Shown: positions 29,330-55,033 of the stretch, in pieces
Layout of the letters: each line of letters begins with the position of its first letter
Numbering within the stretch: the first letter of the stretch is position 1
Assembly: GCA_016192945.1 (NCBI GenBank)
Contig: JACPTE010000034.1
Coordinates: 956 to 64,955 of the forward strand
Length of the DNA stretch: 64,000 nucleotides
Reading direction: 5' to 3'
Source of the DNA: Candidatus Woesearchaeota archaeon
GTDB lineage: Archaea > Nanobdellota > Nanobdellia > Woesearchaeales > UBA10216
Position numbers and translations under genes: made by a program
Notes under the pieces: model-generated
What the model saw: only the letters and a program-made list of their open reading frames with translations
Told to the model about the DNA's origin: nothing
Databases searched by the model: none

Positions 29330-29863
29330 GTGAAAATTAACATCATTAAAGAATTTGAATATTATAAAGATTCTGTTAATGATGTTAGGTTGCTTCTTAA
29401 AACTAATTATGGTGTTATTTATGATGATTTTGATGAACCTTTTAATAAATTAATTCGGAAAGCAAAATATTCACGAATTTCGGGGAAAGATTTGTCAGAA
29501 ATTAAAGAATTATGTTTTGATTATTGGGAAAATTTGATTAAAGAAGTATCTTTCCCTATGAAAGATAGAATAAAATCCGTCAAAACTAAAAATCAAAGTT
29601 TTTTAGATATTTTGTTGAAAATTCAAGAAATTGAAAAAGATGTAGAAAAAAATCCTCACACTATTGAGGAATATCAACAGATATACGAAAATACGATAGA
29701 TTTAGCCTTAAAATTGAGTGATAGATTAGAAGTTGAGAAATTTCAAAATAAGCGGTATTGGCAAGGAATTTGGTTAAGTGGCTTAACAGGAACGATAATA
29801 GGGTTAATCATAGGATACCTTTTAAATATCTTAGTGATTATTCTTTCATCAATATACAGATGA
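29330..29863 (+). CDS. hypothetical protein with C-terminal TM anchor (element cargo)
   Basis: 177 aa, GTG start, very AT-rich codon usage, single C-terminal hydrophobic helix; no family recognised. Confidence 0.4.
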   Translation: MKINIIKEFEYYKDSVNDVRLLLKTNYGVIYDDFDEPFNKLIRKAKYSRISGKDLSEIKELCFDYWENLIKEVSFPMKDRIKSVKTKNQSFLDILLKIQEIEKDVEKNPHTIEEYQQIYENTIDLALKLSDRLEVEKFQNKRYWQGIWLSGLTGTIIGLIIGYLLNILVIILSSIYR

Positions 29864-30739
29864 CTTAATCAATCCTAACCATCTGTTTATTCCTGTTTCT
29901 ATTTTTACTCCTGCTAATTCGCAGGGCACTTTTCCTATTGTCGTATGACTTTCAATATAGTTGTGTTGTATTATTATTCCTTGCATCAGTATCGGCGCAC
30001 TCCACAGAGCTTTCAATCCTCTAAAGTCATCAACTCTGTCTTTTATTTTGCTAAATACTGTTTCTATCCTTACATTATGCTTTCCTGTTTTGCTGACATT
30101 GTTTACCCTGTGTTCAACTGTCAATGCTCCCTTTATTCCTATTTTGTTTGTGTAAAATAGTTTGTGCATTGCTTTTGGGTAGAATTGTGCAGCATCTGAC
30201 TGAATATATTTCAGCTTACCATACGCAGTCGTTCTCTTTAGGAAAATTATTGCTTCATTCACACTCTGATTTAGTGGTCTCTATAAGGTTGCGTTTATGT
30301 ATCGTGTTCTCCAATCAACAGAACACCAAAACTTATCCCCACCTTTCTTTTTTGTGTTGTAACCTCTTGGAATGTCTGTTTCATCAACATAAAGCTCCCC
30401 GCTTAATTCAGGCTTCAAAGTTTCTACAAACTTGGTTACTTTAAGGACATACTTTCTGCACCAATCCAAGACGCTTACGTGGCTTGTTTTGATGCCTTCA
30501 TGCCTTCTGTAGTGGTTTCTTACCTTTCGGCTTGAAAGGTTGCTGAAATACAAATCTATGGCTTTGGTTACTACTTGTTCGTTGTTCTTCATCTTCCAGA
30601 AGCCCAAATCCTGAATAAAGGTCTTTTTACATGGTTTGCATAGGTATATCTGTTGTTTGCCCCTATTTTGCGTTGGGCTTACTCCACGCTTTACGACCTT
30701 TGTGCCTTTGCACTTAGGACATTTTATTTGCATTTCCAT
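29849..30739 (-). pseudogene. IS6-family DDE transposase with N-terminal zinc finger, disrupted by a frameshift near 30262..30285
   Basis: N-terminal ORF 30281..30739 has CPKCKG...CKPCKK and DDE D1/D2 context (YVDETDIP...KFWCSVDWRTRYI, aligning with IS26 MDETYVKV...YRAVDSRGRTVDF). C-terminal ORF 29849..30262 continues in another frame (TTAYGKLKYIQSDAAQFYPKAM, aligning with INTDKAPAY). Confidence 0.7.
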
Positions 30740-30744
30740 AGCTA

Positions 30745-30851
30745 TTAGGTATCTAAAGAAGTATATGAATATTCAGATACCTAAAAGATACTAAACCAAA
30801 CTGCATTTTTAGATACCAAAATCTTTATATATTAGTTAGGTATCTAATAGG
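30745..30851. promoter_or_regulatory. array of four TAGGTATCTAA / TTAGATACC operator-like sites flanking the divergent transposase and abrB-like promoters
   Basis: Sites at 30745..30758 (TTAGGTATCTAAAG), 30774..30787 (CAGATACCTAAAAG), 30809..30821 (TTAGATACCAAAA), 30837..30851 (TTAGGTATCTAATAG). Pairs are inverted and bracket TATA-like boxes at about 30760..30768 (transposase) and 30824..30831 (abrB-like). Confidence 0.5.
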
Positions 30852-30854
30852 CTA

Positions 30855-31049
30855 ATGAGGCTTCTATCTCAAAAAAGCAGGGAATACAAAGGCAAAGCAT
30901 ATCACAAGTTCTGGATAGTAGTCCCCAGCAAGCTTTTGCATAAGTTGGGCTGGAAGGCTGGCGACCAATTGGAAGCAGAAGCAAAGAATAATAAACTCGT
31001 TATAACTAAAGAAGACAAAACAAGAGTAGAACTTGTAAAAGCAAAATAG
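30855..31049 (+). CDS. AbrB/SpoVT swapped-hairpin-like small DNA-binding protein (putative element regulator or antitoxin)
   Basis: 64 aa; KFWIVVPSKLLHKLGWKAGDQLEAEAKNNKLVITKED resembles AbrB/MazE-type looped-hinge-helix domains; leaderless, TATA 27 nt upstream. Confidence 0.45.
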   Translation: MRLLSQKSREYKGKAYHKFWIVVPSKLLHKLGWKAGDQLEAEAKNNKLVITKEDKTRVELVKAK

Positions 31050-31050
31050 A

Positions 31051-31314
31051 ATGGAACAAACCAAATTATCAAAATACAAGGTAAAGGATTTAATTGAAAG
31101 ACCAGAAAAAGTACTAGAAGACACAAATCCAGAAGAGTATAGATTATTAACCAACCCCTTACTATCAGAGCACGGAATAAAGAAAGAATTTCAATCATTT
31201 AAGACTAACATTCTTCTTGAAAAACTGTTAAATGACCAATATAGGACATTTTTACTGAGTTTATTTTTTTTAATTGTGGCTTTGGTGACACTATATTTTA
31301 CAATTAAAAAATAA
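31051..31314 (+). CDS. hypothetical small protein with C-terminal TM helix, translationally coupled to the abrB-like gene
   Basis: 87 aa; start 2 nt after the upstream stop; C-terminal hydrophobic helix FLLSLFFLIVALVTLYF. Confidence 0.35.
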   Translation: MEQTKLSKYKVKDLIERPEKVLEDTNPEEYRLLTNPLLSEHGIKKEFQSFKTNILLEKLLNDQYRTFLLSLFFLIVALVTLYFTIKK

Positions 31315-31322
31315 ATGATGTT

Positions 31323-31336
31323 GACTTAACAGCCCA
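31323..31336. repeat. internal third copy of the IR (GACTTAACAGCCCA), same orientation as the right TIR
   Basis: 14/14 identical to 32377..32390. Confidence 0.6.
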
Positions 31337-31412
31337 AAAAGTTGAGTTGAAGAACAGGACAAGATTTAGAATCAGAAAATGAAAGATGGGAAGTTGATTA
31401 TAGTAAGAGGGG

Positions 31413-32069
31413 TTGATATATATGCAGATAAAAGACCTTGTTACTAATAATAAGAAAAGCATCGTTTTTAACATGGACTTATTGGAGAAACCTTATTTGC
31501 AATACATCCAATTAGGAGGTCTGGCTGAGAAAATATTTAGTGATTACTGCCAAAAAAATGGGCTACAAGTTATAGGCATGGGCGAATTTGCCTACCGATT
31601 ACTTCTTTACGGTAGGAATAATGCTCCAAAGGGCGAATTTCCTTGGTACGATCGATATGGAAAAAGAACCTTTAAGAAAAAGAAAATCGACCAGTTTATG
31701 GCTATGTTTACCGAAGAGCAAATAAGATTTTTAGAAGAAAACCATCAATCGTTAGAGTATAGTATAAACAACAAAATCGTAGGTTTGCCTGATTTTTTTG
31801 TGTGGGATGATAATGGAAGGTTTGCATTTATAGAACTTAAATCTGGCTCCTCAACGCTTAGCACAAGACAAAGAAATGTTTTAAAGAAATTAACAGTCCT
31901 CTTCCCAGTATATGTTTGCCATATTTCTTGTGATGTTGTTCTTAAAGATTTACAAATAGAAAATATAGATTTTGGCTTTGTTTCTATTAACAAAGAATTT
32001 GAATTTGACAAGGGTGCTATAGTAGAGGAAAATTTATATGCACAAGCCCACAAAAGAGAAAATAGGTGA
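31413..32069 (+). CDS. VRR-NUC domain (PD-(D/E)XK) nuclease with unknown N-terminal domain
   Basis: GLPDFFVWDDNGRFAFIELKSGSSTLSTRQRNVLKKL matches the VRR-NUC pattern GxPD...hhhE.K....Ls..Q...h..L. Confidence 0.55.
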   Translation: MIYMQIKDLVTNNKKSIVFNMDLLEKPYLQYIQLGGLAEKIFSDYCQKNGLQVIGMGEFAYRLLLYGRNNAPKGEFPWYDRYGKRTFKKKKIDQFMAMFTEEQIRFLEENHQSLEYSINNKIVGLPDFFVWDDNGRFAFIELKSGSSTLSTRQRNVLKKLTVLFPVYVCHISCDVVLKDLQIENIDFGFVSINKEFEFDKGAIVEENLYAQAHKRENR

Positions 32070-49820: not shown

Positions 49821-50699
49821 ATGAAGCACAGCCTTGCCGTAACTTCATTCTTGATGTCGCTTTTCCTGCTGACGCAGTTTGTTGGCCTGCTTATTGTTGA
49901 CAGCTATACTGACAAGGAAGCAACAGCACAGACTGGCCAGATAGCCTACAAAAGCCTACCGTACAGCATTGAAAGGCCTGACATCAAGCCAGAGTCGTCA
50001 GTGTGGCTGATTCTGGCCGCAGTAATAGCCGGCACAATAATCATGCTGATACTGATAAGGCTGAAGCAGGTTAACCTGTGGAAACTATGGTTTTTCCTGA
50101 GCGTCCTGCTGACGCTGAGCATAGCCCTGTCATCATTCATAAACCCCCTCTTTGCATTCATAATTGGCCTGGCATTTTCCGCATGGAAAGTATTCAAGCC
50201 AAATGTTTACATCCACAACCTCACAGAGGTTTTTATATACGGAGGCCTTGCCGCAATATTCGTCCCCATACTCAACATTACCTCTGCATTCATACTTCTG
50301 CTGCTTATTTCAGCATATGACATGTTTGCAGTATGGCAGAGCAAGCACATGGTAAAGATGGCGAAATTCCAGACCAGGACAAACCTGTTCTCAGGAATCT
50401 ACATTCCAAGGGGAGAAAGCCCAAAAAAAGCGCTCACCAAAAAGGCGAAACTTGAAGACACAGGGGAATCATCAGGCGGTGCAGTGCTCGGAGGCGGGGA
50501 TATGGGATTCCCGCTCATATTTGCGGGAGTGGTAATGAAGCAGTATGGATTCCTACACTCACTTGTCATACCCACAGCAGCATCTATCGCCCTTCTGGGG
50601 CTGCTCCTGGTTGGGAAGAAGAACAAGTTTTACCCTGCAATGCCATTTATCACTGCAGCATGCTTCATCGGGTATGGCATAGTTGCCTACTCTTTCTGA
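49821..50699 (+). CDS. presenilin / signal-peptide-peptidase family intramembrane aspartyl protease homologue
   Basis: About 8 TM; catalytic YD (ISAYDMFAVW) and GxGD (LGGGDMGFPLIF) in adjacent TM helices; PAL-like motif (FYPAMPF) near the C-terminus. Confidence 0.6.
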   Translation: MKHSLAVTSFLMSLFLLTQFVGLLIVDSYTDKEATAQTGQIAYKSLPYSIERPDIKPESSVWLILAAVIAGTIIMLILIRLKQVNLWKLWFFLSVLLTLSIALSSFINPLFAFIIGLAFSAWKVFKPNVYIHNLTEVFIYGGLAAIFVPILNITSAFILLLLISAYDMFAVWQSKHMVKMAKFQTRTNLFSGIYIPRGESPKKALTKKAKLEDTGESSGGAVLGGGDMGFPLIFAGVVMKQYGFLHSLVIPTAASIALLGLLLVGKKNKFYPAMPFITAACFIGYGIVAYSF

Positions 50700-51355
50700 C
50701 TTACCAACTGTAATATTTCATCCTCGTGACCAGCCCCTACAATTGCCAGTATGCTGGATTCAGGGTTTTCCTGCATTATCCTGATTATGTTGGAAGCCAT
50801 TACTTCATTCCTTTCCTCTATCAAAACCCTGTACATGCTGGGATACTTCCTTTTCACTTCCCCAAGAAGCTTTTTTACCAGCTTTTTTTCAGGGACTTTT
50901 GAGAGGTCTATCTTCTCCTTTTTTGAGAAAGGCGCTGCAAACAAGTCCCTGATTAAGTTAAGCTTCTCTCTCCAAGTGAAGCATCTGGAAAACCTCTGCA
51001 TAGTGATTTCAATATCCCGGTCTATCAAAGCCACTTTTGCATTGCACTCGCTGGCAAGCTGTAGGGCTGCTTTCATCTCAGAGCCAGGAGCCACGCCAAC
51101 ATACTGCCCAAGCTTCCTCTGGAGCCAACCCCCGACAAGCACAAACAGGAAACCTTTCAGCCCTATCCTCCTTATGTCAGAGAAACGAGCCCTTGGCTCA
51201 AGATTATGGACAAGCGCATAAAGCCTTTTCCTGTCAAGCTCAACAGCCACTATTCCCGGCTTAAGCCTTCCAAACGAATCTTTAACTTCCTGTATGCTGT
51301 CCCTTGATATGTGCGAAGTTCCTATTATTGTGAGATTCTTATATTGCATCAGCAT
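50687..51355 (-). CDS. TraB/PrgY family protein (Tiki/TraB superfamily)
   Basis: Start at internal ATG 51355 (MLMQYKNLTIIGTSHISRDS matches the GTAHVS motif); TATA about 25 nt upstream; the 120 upstream codons of the track ORF are judged spurious. Confidence 0.55.
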   Translation of the reverse strand: MLMQYKNLTIIGTSHISRDSIQEVKDSFGRLKPGIVAVELDRKRLYALVHNLEPRARFSDIRRIGLKGFLFVLVGGWLQRKLGQYVGVAPGSEMKAALQLASECNAKVALIDRDIEITMQRFSRCFTWREKLNLIRDLFAAPFSKKEKIDLSKVPEKKLVKKLLGEVKRKYPSMYRVLIEERNEVMASNIIRIMQENPESSILAIVGAGHEDEILQLVSQKE

Positions 51356-51425
51356 TGCTAATGCATATAAGTATAAAAATTTGTATATAACAAAATTTTT
51401 ATAAGGATTAGAGGCACTTTCCACC

Positions 51426-52013
51426 ATGCCATCCAAATCCCAGCAGTTCATGGCGAGGGCAATTATTGAGATTGCAGGAAAGCCGAAGAAATACATAGAG
51501 GATGCCATGAAGCTTGTCCTGGAAAGGCTTAAAAAAGAGGATGGAATAAAGCTGCTTAAGACAAAGACCCACGAGCCACAGCAGCACGGGGATATTTTCA
51601 GCACATTTGCAGAAGTAGAGCTCAGGCTTGAAGATTTTGATTCCATTACTTTTTTCTGCTTTGAGTATCTGCCATCCTCAATAGAGTTCCTTGAGCCAGA
51701 ATCATTCAAAATGGACTCAGTCATGATGAACAGCGTCCTAAACGATATCCTTGGCAGGCTGCATCAGGTTGACCTGAGGCTCAAGGACATCACAGCGGCA
51801 AACATGATGCTTGAGAAGAACTCATATACTCTGCTAAAAAGGTCAGTTGCCCTTATTTTAAGCCAGGGCGAAAGGCGGGTAGAGCAGATATCAGACCTTG
51901 TAGGGGTTGTTCCTGAGCAGCTGAAGCCATTCCTTGAGAGGTTTGTAAAGGAAAAATTTATCAGGAGGGCGGGGGATTGTTACAGCTTATACGATGGAGC
52001 CTTCAGAACTTAA
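51426..52013 (+). CDS. hypothetical protein, possible ScpA-like kleisin (C-terminal winged helix), coupled to scpB
   Basis: 195 aa; overlaps the scpB start by 20 nt; C-terminal LKRSVALILSQGERRVEQISDLVGV is wHTH-like; no direct ScpA motif recognised. Confidence 0.3.
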   Translation: MPSKSQQFMARAIIEIAGKPKKYIEDAMKLVLERLKKEDGIKLLKTKTHEPQQHGDIFSTFAEVELRLEDFDSITFFCFEYLPSSIEFLEPESFKMDSVMMNSVLNDILGRLHQVDLRLKDITAANMMLEKNSYTLLKRSVALILSQGERRVEQISDLVGVVPEQLKPFLERFVKEKFIRRAGDCYSLYDGAFRT

Positions 52014-52584
52014 GAACAAGGTTGAAGCAATCCTGTTTGCAGCGGGAAAGAAGGCCAGCTTGGAATACATTTCAAAGCTTTGCAGGGAGAACAAGGACGA
52101 GGTTCTGAAGGCCCTTCAGGAGCTTAAGTCAGAGTATGAGGCAAAGAATTCTTCCCTTCTCGTATCTGATGAGGGCGATTTCTGGAAAATCACTGTGAGG
52201 GAATCTTACTCTCCGATTGTCAGGAAGATAGTCCCTGAGGCAGAGCTTACCAGGACAATGATTGAGACGCTGGCTGTAATAGCCTGGAAAGCCCCTGTTC
52301 TCCAGTCTGATGTGATAAGGATAAGGACCAACAAGGCCTACGACCACATTGCAGAGATTGAATCAGCAGGGTTCATTTCAAGGGAAAAGCACGGGAGAAC
52401 ACAGATAATAAAGCTAACCCAGCGCTTTTATGACTATTTTGACGTGCACAGCGAGGCAGAAGTCAAGAGCAAGTTCAGAAACATCAACGAAAAGCTTGAA
52501 AAAGAGCAGAAAAATGAAACCGACGATATTGCTAAGGTGCCCGAAGTGCGTCAACAGGATGAATTACCAAAGCAGCAACAATGA
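51994..52584 (+). CDS. scpB: segregation and condensation protein B
   Basis: VEAILFAAGKKASLEYISKL; LAVIAWKAPVLQSDVIRIR; two tandem winged helices aligning with bacterial ScpB. Confidence 0.75.
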   Translation: MEPSELKNKVEAILFAAGKKASLEYISKLCRENKDEVLKALQELKSEYEAKNSSLLVSDEGDFWKITVRESYSPIVRKIVPEAELTRTMIETLAVIAWKAPVLQSDVIRIRTNKAYDHIAEIESAGFISREKHGRTQIIKLTQRFYDYFDVHSEAEVKSKFRNINEKLEKEQKNETDDIAKVPEVRQQDELPKQQQ

Positions 52585-52660
52585 CATAAGGGGAAAGTAC
52601 AAAAGCTGCGTGTACTGCGGGAAAAGCTTCAGGATTGAGAATAATACAGTTCCAGCATAG
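52511..52660 (+). CDS. small zinc-ribbon protein (49 aa, CPKC...CVYCG)
   Basis: Internal ATG of track ORF 52430..52660; overlaps the low-complexity scpB tail out of frame. Confidence 0.25.
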   Translation, partial: KMKPTILLRCPKCVNRMNYQSSNNDIRGKYKSCVYCGKSFRIENNTVPA

Positions 52661-52682: not shown

Positions 52683-53957
52683 TTATCTTGTTCTTTCCGG
52701 ATGTGTGAGGGGATTAAAATAACCCAAATTCACATCTTTTGCGACATTCCAAGGAAAACCATATGTATTGGTTGCTTTATCAGTAATTCTACAGAAGAAA
52801 TCAGCACTATCTGCTATCCTGCGATATAAATCAGGATTTCTTAAATCAAATAAATTTATGACATCCTCAATTTTTAGTGGAAAATTTTTCCTCACCCAAC
52901 GATGAAGTTCTTGTTGGCCCACTCTTCCTGTTCCATTTGTAGTTATGTTTAATCCAACATCCTCCTCCCCTATGTTATACCTTAAACCTACTCTTGCAAA
53001 ATCAGCAAAATTATTTGCTACAATCTGCACAGCAATGTATCTTGCAATAAGTGTTCCAGGTCCAGACGGTTTAGTCGGGTCCTCTCCCCACGGCGAGTCT
53101 TCCATCACCCCATAATTGCCGAAGAAATCACGGTATGGTTTTGCTTCTCTGCTTCCTTCGTCAACACTCCATCCTCCAACATTCCAATCACCTAAACCAT
53201 TTACCTTAATAATTGGCTTGCCTAACCTTATTCCCCTTGTAGCGAAATTTCCAGAATTTAATGCATCCTCGAAATTGCCAATATACGCAGAAATTATTTT
53301 GCTTAATGCATCTCTTAGTTCATCGACTGGCAGTTTTTTATCATGTTGTGCATGGACAGTTATAGAATCAATTGAAACTAATTCCACTCCGTTGTATGAT
53401 GCATCTACTATCACTTTTCCATCAGAGAGTAACCCATCTAATCGAGCTACACCAGACTTCTCTGCCATCCTTTGAGGCAAAATTTGTCCTCCATTTGCAT
53501 ATGTAAAATCGAGCAAATCCCTGACACCACAAGCAATAACTCTTTCAAAAGGAAGAAACATCGGGCCACGTCTATATGCGACAGCAATTGGATTTCCTGA
53601 ATCGCCTGCTTTATGATTTGAGGCAAGCACTTCTGCCTGCGGTTTAAGTCTGGTTAAGTCAACTGCAATTTCATGTGATGTTTCCTTATTGATAATTCTA
53701 TAATAAGTATTTACAATTTTTCCCATTGTGTATAGGTTTCGTTGCTCCAATAAACTACCTGAAACTTCTCCAGAAACGGATACAACAATCCTGTCTTCAG
53801 CAGGCGAATATCCGCCACTAACTCTCAAATCAAACCGGGCAAGCGGGTCAAGTTCCAGTAAGTGTGCACCTATCAAATGCGCAATGACTGCGTCTAGTTC
53901 ATCAGGCTTTCCCCTTCTTCCTGCCTCAAACGTATGAACGATAATTTCATCAATCAT
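52683..53957 (-). CDS. divergent MetK-like protein (S-adenosylmethionine synthetase family, bacterial/eukaryotic type) with altered active-site motifs
   Basis: Aligns along the length of MetK (GKPDELDAVIAHLIGAHLLELDPLARFD vs [34 protein letters not shown] vs GAGDQG; IARYIAVQIVANNFADFARVGLRYNIG vs [33 protein letters not shown]...GFPWNVAKD vs FDLRP...FPWEKTD). GHPDK His is Lys and the GGGAFSGKD loop is not conserved; gene is AT-rich. Confidence 0.6.
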   Translation of the reverse strand: MIDEIIVHTFEAGRRGKPDELDAVIAHLIGAHLLELDPLARFDLRVSGGYSPAEDRIVVSVSGEVSGSLLEQRNLYTMGKIVNTYYRIINKETSHEIAVDLTRLKPQAEVLASNHKAGDSGNPIAVAYRRGPMFLPFERVIACGVRDLLDFTYANGGQILPQRMAEKSGVARLDGLLSDGKVIVDASYNGVELVSIDSITVHAQHDKKLPVDELRDALSKIISAYIGNFEDALNSGNFATRGIRLGKPIIKVNGLGDWNVGGWSVDEGSREAKPYRDFFGNYGVMEDSPWGEDPTKPSGPGTLIARYIAVQIVANNFADFARVGLRYNIGEEDVGLNITTNGTGRVGQQELHRWVRKNFPLKIEDVINLFDLRNPDLYRRIADSADFFCRITDKATNTYGFPWNVAKDVNLGYFNPLTHPERTR

Positions 53958-53979
53958 ATGATATTGGAATCACAACATA

Positions 53980-54012
53980 TTTATATTAATTATCAGCGTA
54001 TTTTATTAAAAA
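53980..54012. promoter_or_regulatory. divergent TATA boxes for the metK-like gene (minus) and the tandem-Lrp gene (plus)
   Basis: ATATTTATATTAAT about 25 nt from ATG 53957 (minus) and TTTTATTAAAAAG about 25 nt from ATG 54035 (plus). Confidence 0.35.
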
Positions 54013-54034
54013 GTGGTAAAATAGGGTCTTTTTT

Positions 54035-55033
54035 ATGGTGAATATTAATAAAAATGCAAATCTTGCCGACCTGAAGATTCTGGCGGCAATTGAGGCAGAT
54101 GCGCGAACACCAATAACAGTGCTTGCAAAAAAAGCAAGAATATCAAGGGCAGTTGCAGAATACAGGCTCAGGAGTCTTGAGAAAAAAGGCGCAATAAGAG
54201 GGTATTATTGCCTTCTTGACCCTTCAAAATTCGGGCTAACAGTATGGAAGCTATGGATATCATTGAGGGGCTCTCAAAGCCAAAAGCAGGAGTTTTACAG
54301 CCACATCCAGAGCAATCCCAGGGTCTGGTGGTATGCGGAATGTGCGGGGACGTATGATGCAGTGATATGCGTGCTTGCAAGGACGGTTCACGGATTCAAC
54401 AACTTTTTTCTTTCCCTACAGGAAAAATACGGCGATAAAATAACAGACTCAGCAATCCTGATTAACGTGAGCTTTGAATACCACACAAGAGGCTACCTGC
54501 TTGGAAGGCAATCAAGCCTAATCCAGACTTCATTCCTCCAGAAGATAAGCAACAGGAAGATACCTGATGGCTGGAATAGCATACTAAAGCCGCTATCCGC
54601 TAATTCAAGGATAAGCTACTCAGAGCTTTCCATGAAAACAGGCAAGAACGCAAAAACCATAAAAAAGGCAATAACAGAGCTGAAGAGGGCGGGGATAATT
54701 GTATATTTCAGGCCGTCCATTGATACGGCAATTCTCGGATACGAGTTCTACAAGGTTCTGGTTTACCTTCACAATTCCCCAGGAGGAATAGTCCCTTCAA
54801 TCGTCCATTGGTGCAGGGCGCAGCAAAACATAACTGCAATGATTTACTGCGTAGGGCCATGGCAGCTGGAGCTTGAAGTTGAAATAGGCTCGTTTGCAAA
54901 CCTGATGAAAATGCTAAGGGAACTGAAAGACAGGTTTCCCGACCTGATAAAAAGCTATGATGCGCTTCTCATTACAAAAGAGGGGAATTACGAGCTTGAC
55001 CTGATGGACAAGATAAGGAAAATAACAGACTAG
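54035..55033 (+). CDS. tandem-duplicated Lrp/AsnC-family regulator (two HTH plus RAM units)
   Basis: Unit 1: LADLKILAAIEADARTPITVLAKKARISRAVAEYRLRSLEKKGAIRGY plus RAM. Unit 2: LSANSRISYSELSMKTGKNAKTIKKAITELKRAGIIVYF plus RAM. Confidence 0.6.
   Translation: MVNINKNANLADLKILAAIEADARTPITVLAKKARISRAVAEYRLRSLEKKGAIRGYYCLLDPSKFGLTVWKLWISLRGSQSQKQEFYSHIQSNPRVWWYAECAGTYDAVICVLARTVHGFNNFFLSLQEKYGDKITDSAILINVSFEYHTRGYLLGRQSSLIQTSFLQKISNRKIPDGWNSILKPLSANSRISYSELSMKTGKNAKTIKKAITELKRAGIIVYFRPSIDTAILGYEFYKVLVYLHNSPGGIVPSIVHWCRAQQNITAMIYCVGPWQLELEVEIGSFANLMKMLRELKDRFPDLIKSYDALLITKEGNYELDLMDKIRKITD

Follow-up and report, generated by a model that had tools for sequence, protein, structure and literature searches.

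The archaeal-type methionine adenosyltransferase (MAT; PF01941) shares the overall fold and reaction family of the bacterial and eukaryotic enzyme (MetK or MAT; TIGR01034; PF00438, PF02772 and PF02773; EC 2.5.1.6), and the divergent eukaryotic MATX is regarded as a functional MAT. Here we describe a MetK-like gene encoding a protein of 424 amino acids at 52683..53957 (-) of a 64,000-nucleotide stretch of DNA from Candidatus Woesearchaeota archaeon (assembly GCA_016192945.1, contig JACPTE010000034.1, positions 956 to 64,955; the whole stretch is called the window), together with the discrete clade to which it belongs, which is found in DPANN archaea and in a few bacteria of the candidate phyla radiation (CPR). 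It is highly probable that the MetK-like protein is no typical housekeeping MetK but an accessory paralogue. The reading that we favour, with a probability of roughly 0.5, is that it would be an accessory, separately regulated adenosyltransferase-type enzyme in the homeostasis of S-adenosylmethionine (SAM); taken by itself, the proposition that the protein is catalytic has slightly less than an even chance.

Two bodies of earlier work set the frame for the comparison. A survey of 2963 MAT sequences identified 12 catalytic residues that are highly conserved throughout evolution, in human numbering H29, D31, E57, E70, Q113, K181, D258, R264, K265, K285, K289 and D291; two of these, Arg264 and Glu57*, form an inter-subunit salt bridge in MAT, Glu57 being both this interface residue and a ligand of K+ (PMC7271947). 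The contacts that bind the triphosphate vary between bacterial and archaeal MATs, and the catalytic His is conserved even in the latter (PMC3853416).

Our literature searches found no published description of the clade, and in concept it comes closest to MATX and to paralogues of the prozyme type. MATX (PMC3923989) resembles the MetK-like family in being a divergent paralogue of MAT that is patchily distributed and suspected of having spread laterally, and it is reported to be largely mutually exclusive with MAT; unlike MATX, the MetK-like protein is found together with MetK, and its catalytic residues are changed. The prozyme of trypanosomatid AdoMetDC (PMC6221367) is likewise a SAM-pathway paralogue with altered catalytic residues, and the likeness to the prozyme type extends to the MetK-like gene being encoded beside an active enzyme in several genomes. 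Unlike those of the prozyme, however, the MetK-like substitutions are invariant and charged, not relaxed, most copies are unlinked to metK, and a heteromer is purely hypothetical.

A full-length, divergent member of the MAT superfamily

The open reading frame (ORF) at 52683-53957(-) is intact from ATG to stop, and an NCBI entry with 100% identity to its 424-residue product bears the name 'methionine adenosyltransferase domain-containing protein [Candidatus Woesearchaeota archaeon]'. In a Pfam scan of this protein the C domain PF02773 passes its cutoff of 25 with 55.6 bits, the central domain PF02772 stays at 21.7 bits, under its cutoff of 29, and the N domain PF00438 gives no match. The metK equivalog model TIGR01034 reaches 79 bits, far short of its cutoff of 309.4, and gives 101-105 bits on other members of the MetK-like family, while PF01941, the archaeal-type MAT, has no match in the window protein at E<=1. 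A search of PDB sequences returned MAT/MetK matches only, with a best E of 4e-15 and residues ~160-385 aligned.

Comparison of alignments and of structures extends this similarity to the whole protein. We aligned 63 MetK-like sequences (A1) and 38 canonical MetKs (A2), and hhalign matches the one to the other with a probability of 100% and an E of 5e-47 over 359 columns, the N domain covered. An AlphaFold2 (AF2) model built on A1 has a pLDDT of 90.2 and a pTM of 0.91, and the top 50 Foldseek matches of this model in the PDB are all MATs over the full length, with TMq 0.71-0.76 and TMt ~0.8-0.84. Near the C terminus the window protein carries FDLRNP and FPWN, retaining the FDLR...PW motif of the bacterial and eukaryotic enzymes. 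A first-pass annotation, made by a model from the letters and ORF translations, had proposed end-to-end homology with MetK, including this C-terminal segment, and both points are upheld by these comparisons. By sequence and predicted fold the window protein thus clearly belongs to the MAT structural superfamily. Its sequence is of the bacterial/eukaryotic type, it has the three-domain fold of those enzymes over its full length, and it does not belong to the archaeal type. Of the reference sequences used (E. coli, human and M. jannaschii), that of E. coli agrees with the PDB alignment, and the M. jannaschii segment matches PF01941 proteins.

The polyphosphate and cation site is exchanged for a fixed set of residues

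Residue states were counted over 117 members of the MetK-like family, and positions are given below in E. coli/human numbering and then in that of the window protein. Five of the 12 universal catalytic residues are replaced in the window protein, all five in the polyphosphate/cation site: His14/29 by Lys17 (K in 116/117 members), Glu42/57 by Arg45 (R in 108/117), Arg244/264 by Ala272 (A in 117/117), Lys265/285 by Glu292 (E in 117/117) and Asp271/291 by Ser298 (S in 113/117). In addition, Lys17 of E. coli has become Glu20 (E in 111/117). The other seven are retained, each in 116-117 of the 117 members, namely Asp16/31 as Asp19 (D in 116/117), Glu55/70 as Glu64, Gln98/113 as Gln107, Lys165/181 as Lys181, Asp238/258 as Asp266, Lys245/265 as Lys273 (K in 117/117) and Lys269/289 as Lys296 (K in 117/117). 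The contacts to methionine and adenosine named in PMC3853416 are all retained as well, Asp163 as Asp179, Phe230 as Trp258, Ile102 as Leu111 and Asp118 as Asp119. Every residue in contact with the methionine and adenosine moieties is therefore kept (Glu64, Gln107, Leu111, Asp179, Trp258, Asp266 and Lys296), further kept residues are Asp19, Asp119, Lys181 and Lys273, and all the changes fall in the part of the active site that deals with polyphosphate, Mg2+ and K+. By its residue set as well as by its score on TIGR01034, the protein lies outside the MetK equivalog.

The same pattern is seen in the motifs. Where canonical MetK has GHPDK, GAGDQG and GGGAFSGKDPSK, the window protein has GKPDE, KAGDSG (aa 116-121) and MEDSPWGEDPTK, and the alignments bear out the motif changes that the first-pass annotation had listed, among them the exchange of the catalytic His for Lys. 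GRRGKPDE (aa 13-20, 53898..53921 (-)) takes the place of xxEGHPDK, RFDLRV (aa 41-46, 53820..53837 (-)) that of RVACET, DEGSREAKPYRD (aa 266-277, 53127..53162 (-)) that of DCGLTGRKIIVD, and VMEDSPWGEDPTKPSG (aa 284-299, 53061..53108 (-)) that of HGGGAFSGKDPSKVDRS, while KPQAEVLASNHKAGDSG (aa 105-121, 53595..53645 (-)) contains the retained Gln107, Leu111 and, within KAGDSG, Asp119. The GGG phosphate loop has become Met-Glu-Asp, the gating loop is 8 residues shorter than in canonical MetK, and an insertion of ~15 residues follows aa 155. New invariant charged residues appear at Arg14, Arg15, Arg270 and Arg276, the family has further charged residues of its own in Glu286 and Asp287, and Glu271 is also new. 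This active-site signature is the same in every genomic arrangement and taxon examined. Of the catalytic residues that the first-pass annotation had named for scoring, His14 is changed, and Asp16, Lys165, Lys245 and Asp238 are kept.

A clade under purifying selection

Homologues of the window protein fall into >140 clusters at 40-77% identity, and nearly all the named ones are from Woesearchaeota, Nanoarchaeota/Nanoarchaeia or Micrarchaeia. When the family profile was run against 1.84e9 representatives, full-length members scored from 570 down to ~320 bits, and a gap then separated them from canonical GHPDK/GAGDQG/GGGAFSGKD MetKs, which reach at most 147 bits on the MetK-like profile. In the genomes of GTDB and the metagenomes of JGI a scan located 72 MetK-like loci (numbered with the prefix L below), so that the clade comprises at least 56 distinct ones, mostly in Woese-, Nano- and Micrarchaeota and in a few CPR bacteria. 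Members on contigs labelled as CPR (Dojkabacteria, Peregrinibacteria, Peribacteria) lie at L004:5268-6452, L027:10001-11185 and L034:10001-11164, and the first of these contigs carries the bacterial markers TsaD, TsaE and HU, which identify it as genuinely CPR. The presence of MetK-like genes on CPR contigs thus points to gene transfer between DPANN archaea and CPR bacteria. A neighbour-joining tree of the MetK-like arrangements is star-like and does not resolve their order.

The clade is under purifying selection. The ratio of non-synonymous to synonymous substitution rates (dN/dS) is 0.196 between the window copy and its 77%-identical relative L036, and 0.089 and 0.137 for two further MetK-like pairs; in the one genome pair measured for both, canonical DPANN MetK gives 0.044, about half the MetK-like value of 0.089. 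Since the substitutions are near-invariant over the 117 homologues and dN/dS lies between 0.09 and 0.20, the active site is re-engineered, not decaying, and the word 'degenerate' that had been attached to these motifs does not fit them.

The gene is also atypical in its base composition. As the first-pass annotation had remarked, the gene is AT-rich relative to its neighbours: its GC content is 0.398 against a mean of 0.456 for the genes of the window (z -1.4), and the GC content of its third codon positions (GC3) amounts to 0.273, compared with 0.506 +/- 0.079 for 66 window ORFs (z -2.9), so that the bias lies mainly in the third positions. The adjoining Lrp gene, by contrast, is of normal composition. 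Across related genomes the shift is mild, the MetK-like GC3 being below that of its neighbours in 17 of 22 (loci L001-L033; mean z -0.83) and otherwise following the host over a range of 0.19-0.67; the deviation of the window copy is the largest among the genomes compared. For the window copy the low GC3 could reflect a recent replacement of the ORF or a gene-specific codon usage, and codon usage, expression level or repeated transfer may be behind the low values in the family as a whole. The low GC3 and the lost canonical motifs are also what a decaying remnant of a horizontally acquired metK, a pseudogene in the making, would present, but this explanation is effectively refuted by the intact ORF, by the dN/dS of 0.196, by substitutions identical in 108-117 of 117 homologues and by a confidently predicted fold. 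Of the horizontal acquisition that had been suggested, a singular event is at odds with a DPANN-wide clade, and a recent replacement of the window copy is possible given its GC3. Phage-associated relatives, which had been considered too, did not turn up: phage records hold canonical metK only, at <=29% identity, and IMG/VR holds no MetK-like relative, plasmids lying outside the search.

Two observations on the surrounding sequence space may be recorded here. The metagenome-assembled genomes (MAGs) behind L006, L007, L025, L031 and L033 ('binchicken') are titled 'uncultured Methanosarcinales archaeon', and their gene content hints at a placeholder or mis-assigned label. P0158, P0167 and P0188 represent a second, less divergent non-canonical MetK clade with the motifs RRAHPD, GGAGDT, PDGK, GVKGKKD and GGSAYGKDxSKxDF.

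Canonical MetK and its regulator in related genomes

At L008, L011/L037, L028, L030, L031, L054 and L059 a canonical MetK is encoded directly downstream of the MetK-like gene on the same strand, so that, of the 45 distinct loci whose sequence extends far enough downstream, 7 have the MetK-like gene immediately before canonical metK. In the five GTDB cassettes the spacers between the two ORFs range from 6 bp upwards (6 bp in L008 and L011), L054 and L059 have alignment-to-alignment gaps of ~230 and ~570 bp, and an eighth tandem pair, P0111/P0325, is suggested by a common 3510-bp contig. The canonical MetKs of the cassettes carry GHPDK, GAGDQG and GGGAFSGKDPSKVDRS, share 55-64% of their residues with E. 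coli MetK and score 523-604 bits on TIGR01034; the canonical enzymes of Woesearchaeota and Nanoarchaeia (for example L030:11234-12463, P0299 and P0367) have ~24% identity to the MetK-like protein.

The canonical enzyme is not confined to the cassettes. Searches with the canonical sequences of the cassettes returned >120 clusters, most of them 81-100% identical to the query, and all the clusters that bear a name are called 'methionine adenosyltransferase' and belong to Woesearchaeota, Nanoarchaeota or Nanoarchaeia. Among the matches listed, no MetK-like gene appears on a dozen long contigs of Woesearchaeota that carry canonical MetK. Because canonical bacterial-type MetK is so widespread in the lineage, the housekeeping MAT of Woesearchaeota and Nanoarchaeia is most likely a bacterial-type MetK, and the contrast with an archaeal-type MAT that had been drawn for the window gene is inapplicable here.

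Upstream, a regulator gene recurs. A gene coding for a helix-turn-helix domain (HTH_3) and two CBS domains, here called HTH-CBS, lies directly upstream of the MetK-like gene in all six cassettes that have upstream sequence, and the same type of gene is divergently paired with canonical metK on archaeal Woesearchaeota contigs that have no MetK-like gene at the locus (L074:4333-6182 and L077:1973-6203; also L075, L076 and L078). Since the regulator pairs divergently with metK elsewhere, the ancestral unit looks like a divergent HTH-CBS/metK pair, with the MetK-like gene standing between the two in the cassettes, as it does in ~15% of MetK-like loci. On the MetK-like profile the DPANN canonical MetKs score 110-140 bits and are among the nearest canonical sequences (E. 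coli 107), which makes a tandem-duplication origin compatible with the data; the MetK-like family may well have arisen by duplication of a DPANN metK. Clustering of neighbourhoods found no recurring partner beyond the genes for tandem Lrp, HTH-CBS and canonical MetK. In L077 two MetE-like (Meth_synt_2) genes lie just upstream of the HTH-CBS/metK pair, which suggests that in DPANN archaea SAM synthesis is controlled by a CBS-domain transcription factor, possibly one that senses SAM or another adenosyl compound. That Woesearchaeota and Nanoarchaeia use a MetK of the bacterial type with such a regulator bears on how DPANN archaea secure their SAM supply.

Unlike the bacterial and eukaryotic enzymes in general, the MetK-like protein thus coexists with a true MetK in related genomes, in several of which the two are probably co-regulated, and its gene is associated with regulators of the ligand-sensing kind. 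Because related archaea carry it beside a normal SAM synthetase, a different job for it is probable; it is probably not an ordinary SAM synthetase, which supports the corresponding suggestion of the first-pass annotation. The window itself contains no canonical MetK, archaeal MAT or HTH-CBS gene, and a tblastn search with M. jannaschii MAT gave no match in the window or in 36 related loci; by analogy with its relatives, this organism would be expected to encode a canonical MetK elsewhere. One could instead suppose that the window protein is the sole SAM synthetase of its organism, a fast-evolved MetK whose phosphate-site residues have co-varied while the reaction stayed the same. No other MAT lies within the 64 kb, the gene stands alone beside an amino-acid-type regulator, the Met/adenosine contacts and Asp16, Lys165, Lys245 and Lys269 are retained, and the residues that bind the triphosphate are not the same in bacterial as in archaeal MATs either (PMC3853416). 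We nevertheless consider this improbable, since relatives with the identical signature share a cassette with canonical MetK, where two enzymes of the same activity would be redundant, since the His that is conserved even in archaeal MATs is here a Lys (PMC3853416), and since the lineage has a widespread canonical enzyme of high conservation, the window protein scoring 79 bits on TIGR01034 against a cutoff of 309.

A possible homodimer with a relocated arginine

How could such a site work? The exchange of Glu57 for Arg45 and of Arg264 for Ala272 would shift the interface arginine to the other subunit and remove the K+ ligand, which makes a homodimer complete in itself more likely than a tight heterodimer with MetK. 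The MetK-like protein would then form its own homodimer, in which Arg45 would supply, from the opposite side of the interface, the guanidinium group that Arg264* gives in normal MATs, and would take over the role of the K+ ion. The cluster of acidic residues at 286, 287 and 292 may reposition a metal ion. The protein would bind methionine and an adenosine nucleotide, or SAM, with an altered handling of the phosphate and metal part, and its gene would be switched in this genome by the divergent, amino-acid-sensing tandem Lrp protein and elsewhere by the HTH-CBS regulator common to it and metK. A half-site heterodimer, in which the residues of one subunit are kept and those of the other changed, was considered as well and rejected, as the changes fall on both halves of the site; the subunit assignments behind this idea are also at odds with the 1RG9-based description (PMC3853416).

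Several points weigh against an accessory enzyme of this kind. The homodimer and the relocation of the arginine are a geometric deduction from the sequence and the published salt bridge. The equivalents of His14, Lys265 and Asp271 are reportedly needed for normal catalysis by E. coli MetK, according to the mutagenesis of Taylor and Markham, and because these three are replaced the MetK-like protein may be non-catalytic. The cassette could have arisen by insertion instead of duplication, and in ~30 of the 45 loci neither canonical metK nor either regulator adjoins the gene. The position directly upstream of canonical metK in seven distinct loci, with spacers down to 6 bp, would also suit a non-catalytic partner, a pseudoenzyme that binds SAM or methionine, assembles with canonical MetK, for example as a dimer of homodimers, and tunes SAM synthesis, in a logic analogous to that of AdoMetDC and its prozyme or of MATalpha and MATbeta. 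The HTH-CBS regulator common to both genes, the loss of five of 12 catalytic residues, the catalytic His among them, and the retained ligand pocket agree with such a partner. It is, however, an unlikely explanation in our view: the replacements are invariant and charged (K, R, E, E/D), not free to vary, which suggests a working polar site; in a tight heterodimer Arg45 and Ala272 would leave two arginines at one hybrid site and none at the other; and most loci lie away from metK, with the CPR and Micrarchaeia copies standing alone.

The accessory enzyme that we favour overlaps with a more radical proposal, namely that the MAT scaffold here carries out a different chemistry, with a change of adenosyl donor or leaving group (to ADP or another NTP, nucleoside triphosphate), with catalysis independent of cations, or in a SAM-consuming reverse or cleavage reaction. 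The intact Met/adenosine pocket beside a polyphosphate/metal site exchanged as a whole for another invariant charged set would accord with this, as would purifying selection beside a normal MetK in very small genomes. The proposal is purely inferential, though, the neighbourhoods contain no recurring pathway partner, and our literature searches found no precedent in the MAT fold, so that we regard it as rather improbable. In a broader form, in which the clade would be a MAT-fold enzyme with a new reaction or a new cofactor logic, built on an arginine/glutamate-based polyphosphate/Mg2+/K+ site, the idea is a tentative one of low probability. If it were true, the clade might use another adenosyl donor or leaving group, work free of K+ or run in the SAM-consuming direction, and genome-reduced DPANN and CPR symbionts would gain a second, separately regulated route in their SAM, methionine and nucleotide economy.

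MAT is among the most conserved enzymes known. Whichever of these explanations holds, a clade that has kept the fold and the Met/adenosine pocket and swapped five residues for a fixed set constitutes a natural experiment on the SAM-forming site, all the more notable for persisting beside a normal MetK in genomes of roughly 1 Mb. It may represent a new activity, or MAT regulation of a new kind, and the findings bear on annotations that equate 'MAT domain-containing proteins' with SAM synthetases.

The tandem Lrp neighbour and the divergent intergenic region

The MetK-like gene is divergently paired with a gene for a tandem (two-module) Lrp/AsnC-type regulator of 332 aa with two HTH_24/AsnC-type modules (54035..55033 (+)), from which it is separated by 77 bp, in agreement with the divergent tandem Lrp partner recognised at the first pass. 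Orthologues of this regulator (49-65% identity) occupy the same position in five other distinct loci, which makes 6 of 44 informative loci in all. The intergenic region (53958..54034 (.)) is 77 bp long in L002 too, and conserved blocks are common to L002, L007 and L014. Within it, a TATA-box-like TATAAATA lies 20 nt upstream of the MetK-like ATG (53978..53985 (-)) in a block that is invariant across four loci; this is a putative promoter, and its distance from the ATG would imply a leaderless or short-leader mRNA for the MetK-like gene. On the other strand the TATA-like TATTTTATTA (53999..54008 (+)), likewise in a conserved block, lies 26 nt upstream of the Lrp ATG and is a putative promoter element of that gene. 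In L007 (9599-10000) the spacer between the Lrp and MetK-like genes measures 402 bp, against 77-111 bp elsewhere, with the promoter blocks at the Lrp end; the extra sequence may contain a small ORF.

Other features of the window and fragments of archaeal MAT genes

The neighbours in the window are housekeeping genes, among them genes of the shikimate pathway and those for a signal-peptide peptidase, TraB, ScpB, GyrA and a THUMP methyltransferase. A search for a DPANN seed of PF01941 with a 63-aa conserved-core query matched short PF01941 fragments only and yielded no DPANN seed. P0263, P0279, P0282 and others are such archaeal-MAT fragments of 47-111 aa, on contigs of up to 154 kb, and may represent split or pseudogenised archaeal MAT genes or artefacts of gene calling. 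The ORFs at 29330-32069 and 205-642 of the window are AT-rich, with GC 0.26-0.36 and GC3 0.21-0.31 (z down to -4.5) against window means of 0.46 and 0.51, and may belong to a foreign island. Just past the stop of the MetK-like gene, on the opposite strand and overlapping the 3' end of scpB, a possible ORF of 48 aa at 52514-52660 (+) would encode a zinc ribbon (MKPTILLRCPKCVNRM...CVYCGKSF). The TraB/PrgY ORF at 50687-51724 (-) has an N-terminal extension of 130 aa that matches no domain and overlaps an ORF at 51426-52013 (+); translation probably starts further inside the ORF, near MLMQYKNLTIIGTSH.

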